Assembly: GCA_001004885.1 (NCBI GenBank)
Contig: LCRX01000003.1
Span: 1,650 to 65,649, forward strand
Direction of reading: 5' to 3'
DNA: 64,000 nt
From: Candidatus Magasanikbacteria bacterium GW2011_GWA2_56_11
Lineage (GTDB): Bacteria; Patescibacteriota; Patescibacteriia; Magasanikbacterales; UBA922
Shown here piece after piece: positions 1-64,000 of the stretch. The notes under the pieces were generated by a model. It ran no database searches, was not told the origin of the DNA, and saw only the letters and a list, made by a program, of their open reading frames with translations. Each line of letters opens with the position of its first letter. Position 1 is the first letter of the stretch. Position numbers and translations under genes: made by a program.

Positions 1-1095
1 GAAAGTGGTATCCCGAAGGACCCAACTTTCATCCAGTGCTCTACCACCGGAGGGATCATACGCAGCTAGCCCAAAAGCTATTTCGAGGAGAACCAGCTAT
101 TACCGAGTTCGATTAGAATTTCTCTCCTATCCACAGCTCATCCCCTTGTGTTGCACAGCAAGTGGGTTCGGACCTCCCCCTGTATCTCTACAGGGCTCAT
201 CCTGGCCATGGATTGCGCACCCGGTTTCGGGTCTACTCATTGCGACTAAACGCCCTTTCAGACTTGGTTTCCCTTCGGCTCCGTCCCAGAAGGACTTAAC
301 CTTGCCGCACCGAGTAACTCGTAGGCTCATTCTTCAATAGGAACACCGTCACCCTTGCAGGCTCCGGCTCATTGTAAGCGCACGGTTTCAGGATCTATTT
401 CACCGCCCTCGCCGGGCTGCTTTTCACCTTTCCCTCGCGGTACTGGTTCACTATCGATCACTGTGAGTATTTAGCCTTAGACCATAGTCGGCCTTGCTTC
501 CGACGAGATTTCTCGTGTCTCGCCGTACTCAAGAACAAGAACGATACTGGGTCTATGTATTTCGTCTACAGGATTATCACCTTCTAAGATGCTCCGTTCC
601 AGGAGTCTTCGACTATACATGGACACGCAATATTCAGTTTTATCAGGAAACTGAAGTTCTTATCTTTCTACACCTGTACTGCAACGGCCTGCCCTTTAAG
701 GCACCGCGTCGAAAAAAGTCAAAGACTCCTTTTTTCGCGATGCCAACACAGTATAGGTTTAGGCTCTTCCCCTTTCGCTCGCCACTACTAAGGGAATCAT
801 GCTCTCACAAATTCCTAATATCTAACTCCAACCCTTGCGGATTGGAAATTAGAAATTAGGAATTGAAAGTGAGGCTTGTCGTATTTTCTTTTCCTCTGGC
901 TACTGAGATGTTTCACTTCACCAGGTTGTCTCCGTATGCCTATGGATTCAGCATACAGTGTTCAATAAAATTGAACGGGTTCCCCCATTGGGAAATCTCC
1001 GGATCAAAGGTTGCTTGCCACCTCCCCGAAGCTTATCGCAGGCTGCTACGTCCTTCTTCGTCTCACAGTGTCAAGGCATCCACCGCGCGCTCTTA
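1..1095 (-). rRNA. rrl: 23S rRNA, 5' portion (partial; continues beyond the window start)
   Basis: Minus-strand sequence matches universally conserved 23S blocks: GGTAATAGCTGGTTCTCCTCGAAATAGCTTT, GGTGGTAGAGCACTGG, GATTCCCTTAGTAGTGGCGAGCGAAAGGGG, GAAGTGAAACATCTCAGTA. The 5' end lies near GGATGCCTTGAC around 1060-1095. Confidence 0.85.
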
Positions 1096-1263
1096 ACACA
1101 CTACAGAAGCACACAATGGTGCTTCCTGAACCTAATTATTGGTTTGGTAAATTGTAATGATCAGTCAGCACGCTCGCTTTGCAGGATTCCTGTCACAGAC
1201 CGAATACCTATTCCTGCTTACGCATCCGGTCTGTAATAAGAACTTTGTCCGCCGCCCCGATTC

Positions 1264-2883: not shown

Positions 2884-4490
2884 CGGGCCGACAACTTCCG
2901 GTCAAGCCCCAAAACCCGGAGAATCCTCTCCGGCGAGAGAGCCTGAAACTCGGCTCGTCTGTCCGGCGAGGAATACAATACGTTATAGATATCCGGCAGC
3001 AGCGGACTCATCGCCTCGGACAAGGTGATTTTTTTTGCCAATTCCACAAAATGACCGTAACGTCCGGCGGACTGTTCGATTAGCATGTCGATGCCTGTGG
3101 CCGGCGACAGCCCCTGTTCGGCATCTCCCATGTAAGCGAGCACCATGCCGTCGCCTCCCAGCTCCTTAGTCTGGACCGGCAAGACAGCCGCCGCTTCGGT
3201 TTCTTCACCGACCGCGGCCAAAAAACCGCGCCAGGCTTCTTTGAGCATGGTCAGATCATTTACCTGGCTAAATCCTCCCAGGCACTTTACGCCGTAATAT
3301 AACGAAACCACCAGGTAGCACAGAGCCATACTCGGAAAAATTTGTTTGCGCGCCAGCGCTTCCTGAATCGCCTCCGGCGTCAGGGCGATCACGTGTTCGC
3401 CGCTATCGGAGCGCAGTTCGCCGTCTTTGAGAATCAGCCGAACGCGGTGCAATCGTTGATCCACCGCCCAAAAAAAATAGGTGCCCCAGCCGTTCTCAAG
3501 CGAGAAGCCGCCCGGCAGGTTATTAAAAAACCGCTGGGCCAAATTCTGGTGCCCGGGGTCAAAAAAGAGACGATACAAAAGCGACTCGGAATTTGTGAGG
3601 TGAAAACGCAGCAGGAGTTCATTCACCAGGGTTTCGATTTCGAGATAAATCAAATCCGGAATCCTCCCGGAGGGCCGGACGGGAGTCGCCGCCTCCGGCT
3701 GGTGGTGAAAAATAGCCGGCCACAGGTCGTAATTGATCTTCGTTACTTGAGCGGCAAAATCTGGCGCGGCCAAAACCGAAGGCAGAGAAAAATAACGATC
3801 GAGGACCTCCCCGATGCGCTGCGCGCGCCGGGCGGCAATCTCGCCGCTTTTTTGCTTCAGAGCGAGCTGCGCTTTGGCTTTGGCTATCTCTTTGTCGGCA
3901 AAAGCCGGCGCGCCATAGACCACCGACATCTTGAGCCGGTCGGGCAGGATGGGCAAACGGACAAGCACTCCGGCGCCATTGTCCTGGCTGTGAAAAACCA
4001 GACCGCGGGGGAATGAAGTATTGTTTACCGAAATGCTCGCGAAAGAAAAACTGACCAAATATGGAAGGTCGGGGCCGGACTGGTCAAAGTACGGCAAAGC
4101 TGAAATGATGTTTGAATTGACGAAAAACGGGTGGGTGATGGGGCCGTGATGGTCGGCAGTCGACACCAAGGGAAGACGCCCAAGCTGTCGGGCCACTGCG
4201 TCGCCGACATCCGCGCCGAGACGCGCGGTAACAAGTTCTCTGGCGACAGTAACCAAATCCTGTTTGCGGGTGTCTAAATGCGGAGTTTTGTTAACATCGG
4301 TAAAATCTTTCGCGTAGTCGTAAAGAGTTTTGCCGGCGTGCTTGCGCATGATCTCGCCGAGAATCGGCCGCCGCTGCCAGATATGCGTTTTCATCTCTTC
4401 GAAAACGGATAGCAGGTCAGTGCCAGTCTGTGCCGGTGATAAGCTCTCTGTGAGAGGATTAATGTCGAGGTTGGCCTCGCTAAGGGGCAT
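2880..4490 (-). CDS. Hypothetical protein (536 aa), no recognisable motif
   Basis: A long uninterrupted ORF with coding-like composition. No family was recognised. Confidence 0.5.
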   Translation of the reverse strand: MPLSEANLDINPLTESLSPAQTGTDLLSVFEEMKTHIWQRRPILGEIMRKHAGKTLYDYAKDFTDVNKTPHLDTRKQDLVTVARELVTARLGADVGDAVARQLGRLPLVSTADHHGPITHPFFVNSNIISALPYFDQSGPDLPYLVSFSFASISVNNTSFPRGLVFHSQDNGAGVLVRLPILPDRLKMSVVYGAPAFADKEIAKAKAQLALKQKSGEIAARRAQRIGEVLDRYFSLPSVLAAPDFAAQVTKINYDLWPAIFHHQPEAATPVRPSGRIPDLIYLEIETLVNELLLRFHLTNSESLLYRLFFDPGHQNLAQRFFNNLPGGFSLENGWGTYFFWAVDQRLHRVRLILKDGELRSDSGEHVIALTPEAIQEALARKQIFPSMALCYLVVSLYYGVKCLGGFSQVNDLTMLKEAWRGFLAAVGEETEAAAVLPVQTKELGGDGMVLAYMGDAEQGLSPATGIDMLIEQSAGRYGHFVELAKKITLSEAMSPLLPDIYNVLYSSPDRRAEFQALSPERILRVLGLDRKLSAR

Positions 4491-4980: not shown

Positions 4981-5061
4981 TGCCGCGGGAGAGACTCGAA
5001 CTCTCATAGGTTGCCCTGCTTGCTCCTAAAGCAAGTGCGTCTACCATTTCGCCACCGCGGC
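4981..5061 (-). tRNA. tRNA-Leu (anticodon UAG)
   Basis: The minus strand reads GCCGCGGTGGCGAAATGGTAGACGCACTTGCTTTAGGAGCAAGCAGGGCAACCTATGAGAGTTCGAGTCTCTCCCGCGGCA. A 7-bp acceptor stem, a TTCGAGT T-loop, anticodon loop TTTAGGA and a long variable arm are all present. Confidence 0.8.
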
Positions 5062-5171: not shown

Positions 5172-6212
5172 TCATGTCTTGGCTGGAGTTCGAGGCGGCT
5201 TTTTCCCCCTGGCTCGAGCCAATCTCTTTATCTCCGCGTCGTACACAAATCTTAATTCATGAGGAGGGACATTACCAATAATCGCCCCCATCTGCCGCAT
5301 GGAAGCAGCATCTATCTCTTGGTCCCTTTTTTGTATTTCCGCCTTTATCGTGTCTTCTTCTTTTCTCTTTCTGGCCATAAATTCGTTGTACACCCGCTCT
5401 CGCGCGGCAGATTTTTTCGCCCTTAATTCTAGCTCCGCGCGTAACCTTTTTGATTTGCCGGATTGTTTAACCCCTTCCCTGCGACCACGGTCTTTATAAC
5501 CGCCAAATTCCATGACCACCTCTTTGCCCATACCCACCGTAGGTACGTTGTAGGGCGAAGAGTCGTCATTATGCTCGGAGTGGATCCAGCCTGATTCTAG
5601 TAGTGATTCGCTTCGGGCCGCCCGGTCCCCTCCCGTTACCGCTCCATGATCCTTCCCTGGTTCTATAGCCGCCGGCTTGATTTCTTGTTCTCCCCTTAGT
5701 CCATCCCCAGATGGTTTAGCCTCAGGAAGAGAATGAACTCCGGGTCGGCGGCCTTCTTCTGGGACAGAATCAACCGGAACTTGAGGATAATCCGAAATGT
5801 AGTCATCGCCTTCGCCGTTGTCTGCCCCCATCTCTTCGCGGTACAATAGTTCCTCTTCAGGGGTCCTTCCGCCATCAGGTAATTGTTCTACCGGCACAAA
5901 ATCGCCGCCGACGCGAGGCTGAAAACTGGCTGCGGCTGTCCGGCCATGCCTGCGGTGTGTTTTTAGCCCTGGCGGATCCCCAATCTTGGGGTTGTCGCTC
6001 GTACCCTTAGGTTCGGCATCACCCCAACTTTCCGCCGGTATATAGCGGCCCGAATCTGCGCGGGCAATTTCGCCAAAAGCATCCTGGCTAGGGTGTATTC
6101 CCAAAGTATCCCGGGAAGGATCCTCGCTCGGAGCTTTTTCAGGCCTGGATCTTTTAGGTGGCTTCCACCCGAACAACCCCCAGGGATTTTCACCTGCCGG
6201 TATACGTCGCAT
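5172..6212 (-). CDS. Hypothetical low-complexity, acidic/charged (likely disordered) protein
   Basis: A 346-aa ORF rich in E/D/G/P/R with a basic C-terminus. No domain was recognised. Confidence 0.4.
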   Translation of the reverse strand: MRRIPAGENPWGLFGWKPPKRSRPEKAPSEDPSRDTLGIHPSQDAFGEIARADSGRYIPAESWGDAEPKGTSDNPKIGDPPGLKTHRRHGRTAAASFQPRVGGDFVPVEQLPDGGRTPEEELLYREEMGADNGEGDDYISDYPQVPVDSVPEEGRRPGVHSLPEAKPSGDGLRGEQEIKPAAIEPGKDHGAVTGGDRAARSESLLESGWIHSEHNDDSSPYNVPTVGMGKEVVMEFGGYKDRGRREGVKQSGKSKRLRAELELRAKKSAARERVYNEFMARKRKEEDTIKAEIQKRDQEIDAASMRQMGAIIGNVPPHELRFVYDAEIKRLARARGKKPPRTPAKT

Positions 6213-33811: not shown

Positions 33812-34834
33812 ATGCCCAGAATAAAGTTCGTTAAAATTCAACCCTGGGACTTCTTTCTCAAAGTCAAAAAAGCCAGCGGCCTTTCGTTCAAAGAAATGGC
33901 CCAGCTATGCGCCACGCACCGGCGCACGCTTTCCGACTGGAAAAGAGGCCGGTACCTAATGCCATTGTCGGCCTATGAGGCTTTATTTAAGCTAGGCGGA
34001 AATGAAGAGGTGATTTCAATCATTCCAGATTATAGCCACGCCTCGGCAGCCGGCAAGAAAGGAGCGGCGCGACGTTACCAAATCCATGGGAATCCCGGCA
34101 CGGATGAAGGCCGGAAACGCGGTGGATTGGCCGCGGTAAGAAAACTTACCGCAATTTACCCCCATGCCATAATCACTAAATTCCAAAGGAGACGGCCGAT
34201 TGCCTTGCCGGAACTTTCCTGCAATCTGGCGGAAATGATCGGAATTATTCTGGGAGATGGGCACGTTAGCGCTTACCAGACTACTGTTACACTGCACTCA
34301 CTGGACGACCGGTTATACTCTGGATACGTAGCCAAGCAATTTGAATCCCTCTTCCAAATTAAACCGGCCATATACGAGCGGCAATCCACACTGGTGATTA
34401 CCGTTGCCCGCGTGGCTTTATCCGAATACCTGCACTGCCAACACGGACTTTCAAGCAATAAAGTGAAGACACAGGTGTCAGTGCCGTCGTGGATAGTACG
34501 CCATGATAAATTTGCCCAAGCGTGCGTACGGGGGTTAATTGACACTGATGGCTGTTTCTATGTCGACCGGCACCAATATCTGAATAAACGATATCTTAAT
34601 TGCGCCCTGAACTTTACCAATCGTTCCTTGCCGATACTAAAGTTCGTGAAAGACACCCTGAGCAGCCTGGACTTGCATCCGACACAAAAGACGCCGTACA
34701 GTATTTTTCTGCGGCGGGAAAGGGAAATCGAGCGCTACTTCAAGGAAATCGGATCTAACAATCCCAAACATACAGATAAATTTAAGAAGTTCATCGCCAA
34801 CAAAACACACGGAGGAGTACCGAAGCGGTCATAA
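33812..34834 (+). CDS. Free-standing double-motif LAGLIDADG homing endonuclease with an N-terminal HTH-like region
   Basis: Two LAGLIDADG motifs: LAEMIGIILGDGHVS and VRGLIDTDGCFYVD. The last 8 codons overlap the 5' end of tRNA-Ser(CGA). Confidence 0.8.
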   Translation: MPRIKFVKIQPWDFFLKVKKASGLSFKEMAQLCATHRRTLSDWKRGRYLMPLSAYEALFKLGGNEEVISIIPDYSHASAAGKKGAARRYQIHGNPGTDEGRKRGGLAAVRKLTAIYPHAIITKFQRRRPIALPELSCNLAEMIGIILGDGHVSAYQTTVTLHSLDDRLYSGYVAKQFESLFQIKPAIYERQSTLVITVARVALSEYLHCQHGLSSNKVKTQVSVPSWIVRHDKFAQACVRGLIDTDGCFYVDRHQYLNKRYLNCALNFTNRSLPILKFVKDTLSSLDLHPTQKTPYSIFLRREREIERYFKEIGSNNPKHTDKFKKFIANKTHGGVPKRS

Positions 34835-34902
34835 CGGGACGGTCTCGAAAACCGTTTGCCCTCAAAAGGGGCACGAGGGTTCGAATCCCTCCTCCTCCGC
34901 CA
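34811..34902 (+). tRNA. tRNA-Ser (anticodon CGA), CCA encoded
   Basis: GGAGGAG ta CCGAagcggtcataaCGGG aCGGTCTCGAAAACCGt long variable arm GAGGGTTCGAATCCCTC CTCCTCC g CCA. Confidence 0.8.
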
Positions 34903-34921
34903 AATTATTCATACACCCAAT

Positions 34922-35008
34922 GGAGAGATGGCTGAGCGGTTGAAGGCGGCGGTCTTGAAAACCGTTGAGGATGAAAGTCCTCCGTGGGTTCGAATCCCAC
35001 TCTCTCCG
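34922..35008 (+). tRNA. tRNA-Ser (anticodon UGA)
   Basis: GGAGAGA tg GCTGagcggttgaaGGCG gCGGTCTTGAAAACCGt variable arm CGTGGGTTCGAATCCCAC TCTCTCC g. Confidence 0.8.
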
Positions 35009-60418: not shown

Positions 60419-61313
60419 TTAGTGGGCCTTGTTTATCCATACCTCATTTTTCAATTCCTCTTCTATTTTATAACCCTGGCAATGGCCTAGAATACCCAGG
60501 TAAGATTGTACGGTCTGGTCCAGCCGGTAATCATCGCCAATGCCCCGGTTAAACTCATCTGTCTTCCGGCGCACCTTGGCGAACATCCGGTGTTTGGTTT
60601 TGGCGCGGATTACCCGGTAGCGCGGCAAAAGAACATCCCCGAGCCAGTCTAAAATCATCGGCGTAGCGAAAATAATAATGTTCCCGTAAATGATGTTTGA
60701 CGAAATAATCGAGCTCGGAAAGGTAGACATTGGCGAAAATCTGACTCGTCAAATTGCCGATTGGCATCCCCTTTCCCGACATCCCGGGCGTAGAAAAACT
60801 TCGTATCACTTTTTCTACAAGCCACATAACTTCGGTGTCCCCTAGTTTATTTATAAGCAACTGCAGCAAAATCTCATGGTCAACCGACGCAAAGAATTTT
60901 TTAATGTCCATCTTGAGAGACCACACCGTTTGGTTATGATTCTTACTGGCTTTCCTTAATGCCCTATCTACCGCGCCAACCGCCACATGAACCCCTTTGC
61001 CCCTCTGACACGAATACGAATGATGAATAAACGTCGGCTGGAGTATTGGTTCCAAAAACCGGAACAGAAGGTGATGCACAATACGATCCCGTACCGTTGC
61101 CTTGTTAATGATCCGAAATTTGGGGTCATAAATGTGGAAGGTCTCATACCCTTGATGTTGGTATGTTTTTGTGCTAAGCTCGTCCTGTAATTGAAAGAGA
61201 TTATCCTCTAAATATCTCTCAAAGAGGAGGACATCGGCTTTATTCTGTTTACCTTTTCTAAATTCGTACCAGGCATCGAGTATATTTTCGAGCCTAATCA
61301 GTTTTGAGTACAT
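60419..61313 (-). CDS. Diversity-generating retroelement (DGR) reverse transcriptase; the reading frame is interrupted (frameshift plus an apparent ~40-aa deletion between the YADD motif and the GxDFLGY-like motif)
   Basis: MYSKLIRLENILDAWYEFRKGKQNKADVLLFERYLEDNLFQLQDELSTKTYQHQGYETFHIYDPKFRIINKATVRDRIVHHLL...SYSCQRGKGVHVA...MPIGNLTSQIFANVYLSELD...YFRYADDF runs in one frame (61313-60651). The C-terminal ...PMILDWLGDVLLPRYRVIRAKTKHRMFAKVRRKTDEF...QSYLGILGHCQGYKI is in another frame (to 60419). The pattern matches DGR RTs such as Bordetella phage Brt. Confidence 0.8.
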
Positions 61314-61346
61314 AGTTTTTATGATCACCAATACCACCAAGGAAAG

Positions 61347-61356
61347 CCCCCCCCCC
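61347..61356. repeat. C10 (G10 on the other strand) homopolymer tract in the 83-bp divergent RT/avd intergenic region
   Basis: ggaaagCCCCCCCCCCtcagc. Confidence 0.8.
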
Positions 61357-61396
61357 TCAGCAATTTTTACGAACAGGTTCTTCTCAGGTAGATGAA

Positions 61397-61726
61397 GTGC
61401 CAATCTTAAAGAAAACAATTGATTTGTATAAAACGTACTATGTATACGCGCAGCTCTTCCCGAAGAAAGATAAGTATACACTCGGTGCAACGTGTGAGCG
61501 TTACCTAATTTCGGTTATTGAACTATTACTTGAAGCAACCTACCTGCCCAAAGAAACGAAACGGGCTAGGCTTATGCTTGCCAACAGTAAATTTGAAGTC
61601 CTGAAAGTATTTATACGACTTCTCAAAGAGCTGAACGTTATTGACCAGAAAAAATATATCATCCTCCAAACCATGATCCAGGATATTGGGAGGATGTTTG
61701 GCGGGTGGATGAGATCGCTCACCTAA
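61397..61726 (+). CDS. avd: DGR accessory variability determinant (Avd; four-helix-bundle protein)
   Basis: A 109-aa basic protein with FPKKDKYTLGATCERYLISVIELLLEA...IGRMFGGWMRS, matching the Avd/TIGR02436 pattern (compare BPP-1 bAvd ...VGRILGSWIARV). Confidence 0.7.
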   Translation: MPILKKTIDLYKTYYVYAQLFPKKDKYTLGATCERYLISVIELLLEATYLPKETKRARLMLANSKFEVLKVFIRLLKELNVIDQKKYIILQTMIQDIGRMFGGWMRSLT

Positions 61727-61741
61727 ATGACCGAATACAGC

Positions 61742-61772
61742 GAAGCCTCGACGTATGTGTCGAGGCTTCTTT
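61742..61772 (+). terminator. Perfect 11-bp-stem hairpin (gaagcctcgac-gtatgt-gtcgaggcttc) between avd and the TR; a weak avd terminator and/or the 3' flank of the TR on the other strand
   Basis: A perfect inverted repeat, with only 3 T residues after it on the + strand. Confidence 0.4.
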
Positions 61773-61787
61773 AGGCTATAGGCACTT

Positions 61788-61901
61788 CCAGAGCACGACC
61801 ACCCCGCCGGAGTAGTTCTCGTTCGCGTCGAGGTTCCTGTTGTCGAAGTCGAGCTTCGCGTCGTTCGGGTTGAAGTACAGCGAGTTCTCGGGGTCCTGCC
61901 A
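61788..61901 (-). repeat. DGR template repeat (TR), read on the minus strand
   Basis: 114 bp identical to 62322-62435 except at about 20 positions. Every one of those is an adenine in the minus-strand TR (T on +). The TR carries multiple AAC codons (NSLYFNPNDAKLDFDNRNLDANENYSGGVVVLW). Confidence 0.85.
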
Positions 61902-62187
61902 AAATGCGCTCTTTTCCGTCCGTAATCACCGAAGACAGAGCTTCTCCACTACAAGCCGCTCCATCTCCTGAATTTTATGCGGTTCCAGGATGAACCAAAG
62001 AAAAAAACACGCAGTGCCTATATCTTTCGTATACCCTCCGGCGATGTGAGAAAAGCAACCATTCACCTCCAGACTCCGATACGTTTCCAAAGATATATAA
62101 TTTCGGCGACGATAATCCTTATTCAGAACTATCGTGCATGAGCCTACTTTCGGTTGAGAAGTATACCAGTTTTGTATAAAAACACGA

Positions 62188-62236
62188 AGGCGGGCCATGG
62201 CTCGAAGCGTCGAAACGCTGCGCCGATGGCCCGCCT
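62188..62236 (-). terminator. GC-rich hairpin (ggcgggccat...atggcccgcc with an inner palindrome), followed on the minus strand by a T-run; terminator of the DGR target gene and/or a DGR cruciform element
   Basis: aggcgggccatggctcgaagcgtcgaaacgctgcgccgatggcccgcct. The minus strand continues tcgtgtttttatac. Confidence 0.5.
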
Positions 62237-62312
62237 GAAATGGTGGGTGTCCAAGGGACCAAGTGACCAAGGGTCCTTGATCCAAGGGACAAGTGAGACA
62301 AGAGAACGAGGG

Positions 62313-63242
62313 CTAGGACTGCCAGAGCACGACCACCCCGCCGGAGCAGAGCCCGTGCGCGACGAGGTTCCCGATGCCGAAGCCGAGCTTCGCGTCGCCC
62401 GGGCAGAAGAACAGCGAGCGCCCGGGGCCCCGCCACAGGTTCGCGGGGCAGTCGAGGGCGGGCGTCATGCCGTCGCGGCCGAGGACCTCGGAGTAGCCGA
62501 TGAAGCCCATGGCCGGCTCGAAGGCACCGGTCAGGAGGACGTCGTTCGGGAACTGCTGGACCATCGTGCGGTCCGCGAGAATGCCGAAGCCCTGGAGGCA
62601 GGTGGGGAAGTAGACACCGACCGTCGGGCCCTGCCGCATCGCCTCGATGAGGCACTCGTGCCGGGTGCCGGAGACGACCGTGACCTGCCCCGCGAGCGTG
62701 CCCCGGCGCCAGTTCTCGAAGGTGCGCTCGGGGAACGCCTCGGCGTAGGCCAGGCCGACGGCCGCGAGGAACATGTCCTCGAGGACGGCGCCGTAGTCCA
62801 CGACCTCGCAGTGCGGGAAGCAGACCGGGAGGTAGGTGCCCTGGAGGAGGTTCGCGATCTGCCGGTCGCTCTTCACCCGCTCGATGACCGCGAGGCCCCG
62901 CTCACGGAACTGGTCGGCCGTGACGAAGGTCTGTCCGGGCATGTGCCGCGTGAACCGGGCGTGCACCGCCGCGTAGTCGACCGTGGGCTGCGCGAGGTGG
63001 TAGCCCCGGTCGGCGTCGACGATCTCCTCGGTCATGCCGGGCAGCGGGATCCAGCGGCCGTTCCGGTCGACGAGCTTGACCGTGGTGTCCTGGACGACGA
63101 TCTTGAGCTCTCCGGAGAGCACGCCCTGGAGGATCGTCTCCACCTGGGACTCATCGCCGGTGAGACCGCGGGCCACCTTGCGGATGATCGCGGACTTCTG
63201 ACCGTCGCTGAGACCGGACACCACCTCTTCAAACGTCTTCAT
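62313..63242 (-). CDS. DGR variable (target) protein; the C-terminal domain carries the VR (C-type-lectin/FGE-like fold inferred)
   Basis: A 309-aa ORF with about 65% GC. The VR falls in its last ~40 codons, and an AAGGAG RBS lies 7 nt upstream of the ATG. Confidence 0.75.
   Translation of the reverse strand: MKTFEEVVSGLSDGQKSAIIRKVARGLTGDESQVETILQGVLSGELKIVVQDTTVKLVDRNGRWIPLPGMTEEIVDADRGYHLAQPTVDYAAVHARFTRHMPGQTFVTADQFRERGLAVIERVKSDRQIANLLQGTYLPVCFPHCEVVDYGAVLEDMFLAAVGLAYAEAFPERTFENWRRGTLAGQVTVVSGTRHECLIEAMRQGPTVGVYFPTCLQGFGILADRTMVQQFPNDVLLTGAFEPAMGFIGYSEVLGRDGMTPALDCPANLWRGPGRSLFFCPGDAKLGFGIGNLVAHGLCSGGVVVLWQS
62322..62435 (-). repeat. DGR variable repeat (VR) within the 3' end of the target gene
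   Basis: See the TR entry. The VR encodes ...RSLFFCPGDAKLGFGIGNLVAHGLCSGGVVVLWQS, and the stop codon lies 7 nt after the VR. Confidence 0.85.
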
Positions 63243-63317
63243 GGGACTCCTTTCAGGCTTGTTATCACCCGAAGAGCTGCCCTTACCCGGGGCCCAGGGC
63301 CTCCTCTATCCCTCGAT

Positions 63318-63366
63318 GAGGAAAGCTTTCGCCTTATTACTAGCTAGTACGGCTAAAGCTTTCCTC
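63318..63366 (-). promoter_or_regulatory. 19-bp-stem inverted repeat (gatgaggaaagctttcgcc...ggctaaagctttcctcatc, loop containing ctagctag) in the 5' leader of the DGR target gene
   Basis: Located between the predicted promoter and the target-gene start. Confidence 0.4.
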
Positions 63367-63414
63367 ATCTTTTTCTCTTGTTTTAGCCTAATTTGTGCAA
63401 AGAACGAATATAAA

Positions 63415-63443
63415 ACTATAGCATATTTTAGCGATTTTGTCAA
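63415..63443 (-). promoter_or_regulatory. Sigma70 promoter for the DGR target gene (TTGACA-17 bp-TATAGT), giving a leader of about 165 nt
   Basis: The minus strand reads TTGACAaaatcgctaaaatatgcTATAGT. Confidence 0.5.
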
Positions 63444-63551
63444 GGGTATAAATTCAGAAACAGTACCACCCCACGGTTGGTACCACTCCAATTCCGGCGC
63501 TACCGTTAGCGAAAAATCCAAAAATTTACCGCCTTCAGATAGCAAATCAGC

Positions 63552-63582
63552 CCGGCTTTGGCCGGGCTGATCGCATAGAAAT
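63552..63582 (-). terminator. Hairpin terminator (atcagcccggc-tttg-gccgggctgat) following the upstream minus-strand gene
   Basis: A perfect 11-bp stem, followed on the minus strand by a T-rich stretch (tttgctat). Confidence 0.55.
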
Positions 63583-63601
63583 CTAATTTAACGCGCCAGA
63601 A

Positions 63602-64000
63602 CTATTCAATTCGCACCTCATCCAAGTAGAACGTCCCCTCGTTCGCCCCGGTATTACCCTGGATGGCAAACCCGGTAATCGTACCCCCGGCCGCGCCGAT
63701 ATCCGCGAGCGGAATAGAGACCGTCTGCCACTGACCGGCCTTCAATACGCCGTCCGGCAGATACGGGGCCAGCTTGTAGTGATTCGGCCCGGCGCCGGTT
63801 GCGTCGAACGGCACAATCTGGAGCTGCTGCCCGGCGGGCACGGTGCCGTAGAGGGTCATGGTAAGCGTCGTCCGGCCGGTGGTGTCGAGCCCTGGATGAT
63901 GGAGGAAATAACCGGCCCAGGGGCTTAGAAACTCGACCGCCAGAGCTTGCGTGCCCTGGTACACCGGGGTAGTCGTCGCGGACGCGTTTATCTCCCACGA
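63602..64000 (-). CDS. C-terminal part of a protein continuing beyond the window (beta-rich, possibly a surface or binding domain)
   Basis: The ORF is open to the window edge and ends ...GNTGANEGTFYLDEVRIE. Confidence 0.4.
   Translation of the reverse strand, partial: SWEINASATTTPVYQGTQALAVEFLSPWAGYFLHHPGLDTTGRTTLTMTLYGTVPAGQQLQIVPFDATGAGPNHYKLAPYLPDGVLKAGQWQTVSIPLADIGAAGGTITGFAIQGNTGANEGTFYLDEVRIE

Follow-up and report, generated by a model that had tools for sequence, protein, structure and literature searches.

We analysed 64,000 nucleotides of contig LCRX01000003.1 (positions 1,650 to 65,649 of the forward strand; GenBank assembly GCA_001004885.1) from Candidatus Magasanikbacteria bacterium GW2011_GWA2_56_11. 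This whole stretch is called the window, and positions refer to it unless another contig is named. Near its right-hand end the minus strand carries a gene for a variable protein (the target) that closes with a variable repeat (VR), followed by a non-coding template repeat (TR), an avd gene in reverse orientation and a gene for a reverse transcriptase (RT) (Table 1). These parts form a diversity-generating retroelement (DGR) of an architecture and probably a lineage known in the candidate phyla radiation (CPR, Patescibacteria), and its RT gene is interrupted by a deletion. A first-pass annotation had already proposed a DGR at this place, and its interpretation is borne out by an adenine-specific relation between TR and VR, the presence of Avd, a DGR-type RT and the location of the VR at the 3' end of the target open reading frame (ORF). 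Related public contigs and genome loci are labelled L001, L002 and so on (the window itself is WIN), whereas P0001 and P0007 denote proteins of the target family.

Table 1. Features of the retroelement in the order in which they are met on the minus strand (window coordinates).
Feature	Position	Strand	Remarks
Promoter-like site of target	63415..63443	-	TTGACA, 17-nt spacer, TG, TATAGT; consensus match
Target (variable protein) gene	62313..63242	-	309 aa; GC 0.695, GC3 0.96
VR	62318..62435	-	118 bp; last 39 codons of target; 82% identity to TR
Invariant GC-rich 3' end of VR (IMH-like), GGCGGGGTGGTCGTGCTCTGG	62322..62342	-	identical 21-mer closes TR (61788-61808)
Array of 6 CTTG(G) repeats	62246..62304	-	central inverted copy CTTGGATCAAG; directly past target stop codon
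GC-rich hairpin, GGCGGGCCAT...ATGGCCCGCC, then T-run	62176..62235	-	equivalent in every related locus
Extended -10-like element, TGGTATACT	62160..62168	-	12 nt upstream of conserved GTAGGCTCATG; putative promoter of TR RNA
Structured leader RNA	61902..62147	-	about 245 nt; opens with GTAGGCTCATG and runs up to TR
TR	61784..61901	-	non-coding; 118 bp; same sequence in window, L001 and L002
11-bp hairpin, GAAGCCTCGAC / GTCGAGGCTTC	61742..61769	-	15 nt past TR, between TR and convergent avd
avd	61397..61726	+	109 aa, GTG start; opposite strand to target, TR and RT
C10 (G10 on RT strand)	61347..61356	+	within 83-bp divergent avd-RT intergenic region
RT, in-frame N-terminal part	60651..61313	-	aa 1-221, through YADDF; identical to L001 up to deletion junction
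RT, C-terminal remnant in other frame	60419..60650	-	DWLGDVLLPRY to stop; junction 60650/60651

The first-pass annotation had described a pair of 114 bp that differed at about 20 positions, all of them adenines in one copy; the adenine specificity stands, but the pair is really 118 bp long and had been cut 4 nt short at one end, its coordinates being otherwise right. Aligned on the minus strand, TR and VR show 21 mismatches, and tabulation by TR base places every one of them (21/21) on a TR adenine (hypergeometric P = 4.5e-17), so that the adenine specificity is a direct observation. Altogether 21 of the 29 TR adenines are changed in the VR (12 A>G, 5 A>T and 4 A>C). When the TR is read in the frame of the VR (ORF 63242..62313), all 29 adenines occupy codon position 1 or 2 and seven AAC codons are found (translation WQDPENSLYFNPNDAKLDFDNRNLDANENYSGGVVVLWK), in keeping with the earlier description of a non-coding template full of AAC codons and of a VR that supplies the last 40 or so codons of the ORF at 62313-63242. 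Stop codons can be reached by adenine mutagenesis from two AAG codons of the TR only, and the repertoire computed from the TR adenines amounts to about 9e16 protein variants.

Both repeats end in the same GC-rich 21-mer, which matches twice in the 64 kb against 0.01 matches expected. Directly beyond it VR and TR part, with CAGTCCTAG in the VR and AAGTGCCTATAG in the TR. An invariant stretch followed by divergent sequence agrees with the published description of the initiation of mutagenic homing (IMH) site and its counterpart IMH*, and by analogy with the IMH of the BPP-1 element (PMC5758913) the 21-mer is a putative IMH.

Avd accompanies most DGRs, and the Avd-like gene noted earlier beside the RT passes the cutoffs of both NCBIfam NF033474 (DivGenRetAVD; 85.6 bits, cutoff 80) and Pfam bAvd (66.3 bits, cutoff 40). 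The RT motifs quoted in the first-pass annotation are present as well, together with an IGNLTSQ motif and the Pfam RVT_1 domain, and the RT is of the DGR type. NCBIfam holds no curated model for DGR RTs, and this call rests on the IGxxxSQ motif and on the ranking among solved structures, where the best match of the intact RT encoded on L001 is chain 8ub7 (E 4.5e-41; group II intron RTs follow at 1.3e-19). The deposit labels this 328-aa chain only 'Reverse transcriptase'; we take it to be the bRT of the Bordetella phage, guessing from its length and from the entry series. These identities of Avd and RT are read directly from the genes.

The interval 60419-61313, previously treated as a single RT reading frame, consists instead of two minus-strand ORFs in different frames (61313..60555 and 60730..60419). 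The former leaves the RT frame straight after the YADDF motif and reaches a stop at 60555. In comparison with L001 (12593-12719) and L002, the window misses 127 bp that encode LFLHADVAHLKEIENTVAPFVENRLGLTAHPGKIVYRKFSQG; since 127 is not a multiple of three, the RT frame is shifted. The intact RT of L001 and L002 has 340 aa and covers positions 8-204 of the 205 in the RVT_1 profile, against 8-156 in the window. The deleted segment is unique sequence, and its edges form a clean junction with a flanking repeat no longer than 1 nt. A substitution at 60637, 14 nt from the junction, changes LGY into LGD in the remnant. With the frame shifted and the last quarter of the RT domain gone, this copy of the element is probably without activity and has a fixed VR, unless another locus of the genome supplies an RT. 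The loss of RT integrity bears on the activity of this copy, not on its identity as a DGR.

That the VR was diversified not long ago follows from a comparison with nearly identical contigs. A word-indexed protein search with the target returned six relatives, of which P0001 is 96% identical and is encoded on two contigs from ENA, L001 (16.7 kb) and L002 (5.2 kb), both having the same cassette with an intact RT. Over 3243 aligned bp (63893..60651) there are 15 differences between the window and L001, making the cassettes 99.5% identical, and 14 of these differences lie in the VR, every one at a TR-adenine position; the comparison with L002 gives the same result. The fifteenth is a W64C change in the target, and another 3.6 kb or so of flanking DNA add three substitutions only (including the one in the RT remnant). 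Given that 14 of 15 differences fall on TR-adenine sites of the VR while the TR is identical, the VR was diversified after the genomes of the window and of L001 and L002 had diverged. This turnover is observed directly, and it supplies the population-level VR variation whose absence, according to the first-pass annotation, would have spoken against a DGR: two alleles are known, and the differences between them are adenine-templated. The RT has probably been lost in the genome of the window since that diversification, the alternative being an assembly error. The alignment to the window ends at 63893 for L001 and reaches 64000 for L002.

The target itself matches no Pfam or NCBIfam family, and the expected agreement with sequence models of C-type-lectin or formylglycine-generating-enzyme folds did not materialise (no match to Pfam FGE-sulfatase or DUF1566). 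It nevertheless belongs to a sizeable family. Relatives were obtained through a profile search and through the RT searches described below; the former, run over 1.84 billion cluster representatives, yielded 555 clusters (at 50% identity), 300 of them at E <= 1e-30, with members that are nearly all about 300 aa long. No Pfam match was found in a scan of 110 members, nor did the family profile match any PDB sequence. The family was likewise not found in viral contigs, in GTDB species genomes when searched with exact peptide patterns (its alignments are too divergent for patterns), or in JGI metagenomes with N-terminal patterns.

Supplied with the family alignment, AlphaFold produced a confident model of the target (predicted local distance difference test, pLDDT, 96.5; predicted template modelling score, pTM, 0.90). 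In structure comparison the model weakly resembles C-type-lectin folds, and a Foldseek search against PDB and BFVD gave nothing significant. We hold with moderate confidence that the C-terminal half of the protein adopts a divergent C-type-lectin fold; the N-terminal part is modelled as a three-helix bundle with a linker, and its roughly 130 N-terminal residues have no structural match. Family-wide, the entropy is 3.00 bits at the columns of TR-adenine codons against 1.60 at the other VR codons, and given this excess the same protein surface is varied across the whole family.

Upstream of the target we find a promoter-like site that agrees with 11 of the 12 consensus positions and has a TG before its -10 hexamer; the promoters of CPR bacteria themselves are uncharacterised. 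A 397-aa ORF on the opposite strand (62154-63347, plus strand) was considered and rejected as a gene: its translation is of low complexity and it is a by-product of the missing A-ending codons in the target, which has hardly any of them (no TTA, CTA or TCA). A counterpart of 335 aa is present in L003.

Sequences found only on the recipient side lie directly past the VR. The CTTG(G) array is the only 75-nt stretch on either strand of the 64 kb with at least six such motifs (background mean 0.44). Among the loci an array comprises 5-7 repeats at a spacing of 7-9 nt. It follows the VR in WIN, L013-L015, L020, L022, L008, L010, L024 and L025, is degenerate in L016-L019 and was found after the TR in none of the loci compared. 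From this distribution the array appears to be a candidate marker of the recipient site. The GC-rich hairpin beyond it is a candidate terminator of the target and/or a candidate analogue of the inverted repeat downstream of the IMH. A further family member, P0007 (L010 3-935, L011 and L012), has the array and the GC hairpin after its VR and a GC content at third codon positions (GC3) of 0.87. No RT or Avd was found within about 3 kb downstream of it (L010) or about 2 kb upstream (L011), and P0007 may be an orphan or trans-acting target.

Between the target and the TR lies a conserved leader. An element resembling TGnTAnAAT is found at the equivalent place in L013, L015, L020, L022, L018, L008 and L024. 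For the leader RNAalifold predicted two helices, namely P1 (62144-62127 with 62117-62105) and the long-range P2 (62010-61999 with 61917-61906), which ends 5 nt before the TR. Pairing was then counted independently against controls with slid partners and against shuffles: 98.8% of the cells are paired (44-58% in the slid controls) and in 19 of 25 pairs both partners have changed (7-10 when slid), values that none of 500 shuffles reaches. The covariation of the leader is therefore a direct observation. No Rfam family matched the leader or the TR region, where a sub-threshold His_leader match was obtained on the wrong strand only.

On its other side the TR is followed in 10 of 10 loci by an A-rich linker and a stable hairpin of 8-12 bp that varies in sequence; in several cases an A-run and a T-run border the hairpin. 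The hairpin is a candidate bidirectional terminator and/or Avd-binding stem-loop. Handa et al. described Avd-binding stem-loops just 3' of TRs as well as a duplex on the 5' side of the TR that stops cDNA synthesis (bioRxiv 10.1101/2023.10.23.563531), and the post-TR hairpin and P2 are plausible counterparts of this stem-loop and this cDNA-stopping duplex in BPP-1. Given the conserved -10-like element, the leader and the post-TR hairpin, the TR is most likely transcribed as an RNA of its own of about 430 nt and not together with the RT. A priming duplex of the TR 3' end with RNA further downstream, the antisense avd 'FGGW' codons among it, was looked for and discarded: the duplex energies did not differ from those of shuffled sequences, and neither L013 nor L015 retains the complementarity of GGCGGGGTGG with CCACCCGCC seen in the window.

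The same arrangement recurs in a number of relatives. A search of the GTDB species genomes with the RT returned 11 loci, 10 of them in Patescibacteria metagenome-assembled genomes (MAGs; 41-63% identity) and one in a Chlorobiales MAG (37%); the former represent Magasanikbacteria, Jorgensenbacteria, Uhrbacteria, Zambryskibacteria, Doudnabacteria and Parcubacteria. An adenine-specific TR/VR pair is present in 10 of the 11 loci, and L021, where only the 3' end of the target is available at a contig edge, was excluded from this scoring. The nine CPR MAGs with such a pair share the layout of target, a spacer of 313-447 nt, TR, reverse avd and RT, and in total the inversion of avd is seen in 13 related CPR-type loci. 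The target family of the window is also encoded in five loci (L013, L014, L015, L020 and L022) and partly in L021. The layout of the window is the B3 architecture, 'TR-(avd)-RT', defined together with a 'CPR set' by Wu et al. 2018 (PMC5758913). As an inverted avd is known in B3 and stable across the loci, it is not an anomaly of the window. Roux et al. 2021 described a cellular DGR clade restricted to Patescibacteria ('clade 2'), with targets that lack recognisable domains, and predicted that these targets hide new variants of the lectin fold (PMC8144416).

The VR is a frequent point of breakage or collapse in the assemblies of the relatives, and several contigs end within about 50 nt past it (for example at the ends of L025 and L006). 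In L003 (1090-2148) the target ORF continues from an unmutated, TR-like 'VR' into the avd region, VR and TR having been merged by the assembler. Directly downstream of the RT, L003 also encodes a HicB/HicA-like gene pair (3508-4096), recognised by eye from the translations.

In the divergent region between avd and RT the window contains a tract of ten G residues on the RT strand, which is its only G/C homopolymer of at least 8 nt. When the window and 14 loci are taken together (246 kb), runs of this length occur only once per DGR, as G9-G11 on the RT strand. L001-L003, L013-L015, L018-L020, L028 and L030-L033 (some of them from JGI contigs) each have one such tract in this position, and the intergenic tracts lie 20-85 nt upstream of the RT start. 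Its length differs between L032 (G9) and L019 (G10), which are 99.45% identical. In L022 and L036 (79% DNA identity) a G10 tract lies inside the RT ORF, exactly at a frame change, past which the frame is conserved in either locus. The tract sites of L022, L036 and L037 are of the 5557-5566 type, and the observation also takes in L021 and L035; in L021 a (GA)n repeat occupies the same spot of the RT and the RT ORF is likewise split. The pattern looks like slipped-strand phase variation, or else like a recoded RT, homopolymer sequencing error being possible too, and we infer a regulatory role for the G10 tract of the window. No link between DGRs and homopolymer tracts was found in the literature searched.

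The target gene is also set apart by its composition. Its GC3 of 0.96 (A3 0.01, T3 0.03) corresponds to 3 A-ending and 10 T-ending codons among 310, against a mean of 0.66 for the other ORFs of the window (standard deviation 0.07, maximum 0.78) and about 0.5 for RT and avd. An excess over the host background (+0.12 to +0.38) is seen in 10 of 10 CPR loci with flanks, four of which have other target families; it recurs in L010, L024 and L025 and is missing in L023, the Chlorobiales locus, and in L027, a distant member of the family. This GC3 island does not extend beyond the target ORF and runs flat once the gene's first fifth is passed, and the amino-acid composition is GC-shifted as well. Two explanations were considered. 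Erosion of adenines by the RT was rejected as the sole cause, for it would deplete A3 and not T3, yet T3 is also depleted about six-fold; gene conversion centred on the VR is not supported, there being no gradient towards the VR.

Taken together, the element is very likely a chromosomal DGR of the CPR (Patescibacteria) made up of four units and disabled in this genome by the deletion in its RT. The target gene, with its own promoter-like site and terminator, would place the VR on a lectin-like C-terminal domain. The second unit would be the non-coding RNA of about 430 nt, comprising the -10-like element, the leader with P1 and P2, the 118-nt TR, the A-rich linker and the terminal hairpin. The third and fourth would be avd, on the opposite strand and convergent with the TR RNA, and the RT gene, divergent from avd. 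By analogy with BPP-1, a complex of RT and Avd would bind the structured TR RNA, copy the TR into cDNA and misincorporate opposite its 29 adenines. The cDNA would then replace the VR, with the common GC-rich 21-mer as the 3' limit, and specificity for the recipient may come from the sequences found only after the VR, namely the CTTGG array and the GC hairpin.

A number of points weigh against this interpretation. The promoters and terminators on which it draws, like the RNA ends, the priming site and the recipient-site elements, are predictions from conservation; the VRs of L001 and L002 are identical, so that no more than two VR alleles are known; an RT encoded at another locus of this genome could work in trans; and the deletion may have arisen in assembly or represent a minority allele, both other assemblies being intact. 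If the latter were the case, the element would be fully active and the 127-bp gap an error of assembly or consensus, or a rare allele. The intact 340-aa RT in two contigs that are 99.5% identical over the cassette, the strong diversification of the VR in the window (21 of 29 adenine sites) and the presence of a single other substitution in the RT remnant, with no sign of long decay, all agree with this alternative. We nevertheless consider it unlikely, as unique sequence with a flanking repeat of at most 1 nt does not typically make an assembly collapse, the edges join cleanly and the additional LGY to LGD substitution lies 14 nt off.

Complementation of the broken RT in trans by another DGR-type RT, by which the VR would still be diversifying, is considerably less probable. 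Remote DGR targets are documented (PMC5758913), and P0007 has the recipient-side sequences with no RT in the flanks given above. Against this, the 64-kb window contains no second RT, Avd, target, VR or TR-like sequence, DGR RTs rely on their cognate flanking RNA (bioRxiv 10.1101/2023.10.23.563531) and CPR genomes are small. That the repeat pair is not a retroelement template at all but a duplicated gene fragment diverged by ordinary mutation can practically be dismissed: beyond the existence of a direct repeat nothing speaks for it, the restriction of all 21 mismatches to the adenines of one copy rules out ordinary divergence, the A-rich copy is non-coding and lies inside a conserved structured RNA adjoining Avd and RT, and the same adenine-specific pattern is seen in 10 related loci. 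The preferred reading thus remains that of a genuine CPR DGR whose RT has been deleted.

Among experimentally studied elements, the DGR of BPP-1 (mtd-avd-TR-brt) is similar in its adenine-specific transfer from TR to VR, in the VR at the 3' end of a lectin-fold gene and in Avd. The two also have in common an invariant GC-rich 3' end of TR and VR, a GC-rich hairpin past the VR and a stem-loop 3' of the TR, and the best solved relative of the RT, the unnamed chain 8ub7, is presumably the bRT of that system. There are clear differences too. BPP-1 is a phage, whereas the element of the window is chromosomal and apparently cellular, and searches for it in viral contigs and BFVD gave no matches. In the window avd is inverted and sits between TR and RT, the GC hairpin lies about 80 nt from the VR with the CTTGG array in between, the conserved structured RNA is found mainly 5' of the TR (in BPP-1 it is the 3' spacer), the target is a 309-aa protein without a sequence family and the RT is broken. 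To the C-type-lectin-fold variable proteins TvpA of Treponema denticola, TaqVP of Thermus and those of Legionella, the target shows an identity of 5-8%. With the CPR DGRs described before (PMC5758913, PMC8144416) the element shares the order target-TR-(avd)-RT and a target without transmembrane or known domain, and no feature was found that sets it apart from this group. The poly-G tracts resemble the contingency loci of Neisseria and Campylobacter (PMC3786947, PMC8355987) in length (G9-G11), in the length difference between strains and in the splitting of ORFs at the tract, with the difference that the DGR tracts are known only from comparison between strains.

Housekeeping genes and ABC-2 permease genes are neighbours of the DGR, which is therefore chromosomal and not located in an obvious prophage. 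At the left-hand edge of the window (1-1106, minus strand) we find a bacterial 23S rRNA gene, represented by its 5' 946 nt, and three tRNA genes are located at 4981-5061 and 34811-35008. Upstream of the target (63602-64000, minus strand) lies the C-terminus of a large protein, which comprises 1046 aa in L001 (6449-9589); it has no Pfam domains, and its end resembles a carbohydrate-binding module (a weak SGBP_B_XBD match, E 0.005).

Viewed simply as a DGR the element adds little, as DGRs of this layout and with unannotated targets are known to abound in CPR bacteria. Its value lies partly in a natural contrast: the same element is available with an intact RT (L001 and L002) and with a deleted one (the window), each with a different VR, and, given reads, this contrast could show how fast a VR changes in the presence of an RT and whether it freezes after RT loss. 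In addition, an unannotated target family of 555 clusters without Pfam match gains a confident model, which supports the lectin folds predicted to be hidden in CPR targets. Recognition of the recipient site and regulation of DGRs have been characterised experimentally mainly in the elements of Bordetella and Legionella (PMC5758913). For both processes about 20 related loci now yield candidates in the form of the CTTGG array, the leader RNA and the poly-G tract; descriptions of these three, and of the GC3 island, were not found in the literature searched. It might even be argued, though we regard this as tentative and rather doubtful, that throughout the lineage RT and Avd are switched on and off stochastically by G9-G11 or (GA)n tracts, which lie in the divergent avd-RT promoter or inside the RT ORF, in combination with an RNA and target-site design unlike that of BPP-1 (a 5' structured leader and a CTTGG-marked VR), and with the GC3 island as the sign of a further constraint. 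If true, the 127-bp deletion in the window would amount to a fixed 'off' position of an otherwise toggling system. What is most interesting about the locus is comparative and lineage-wide, namely the array at the recipient site, the leader RNA, the poly-G tract and the GC3 island.

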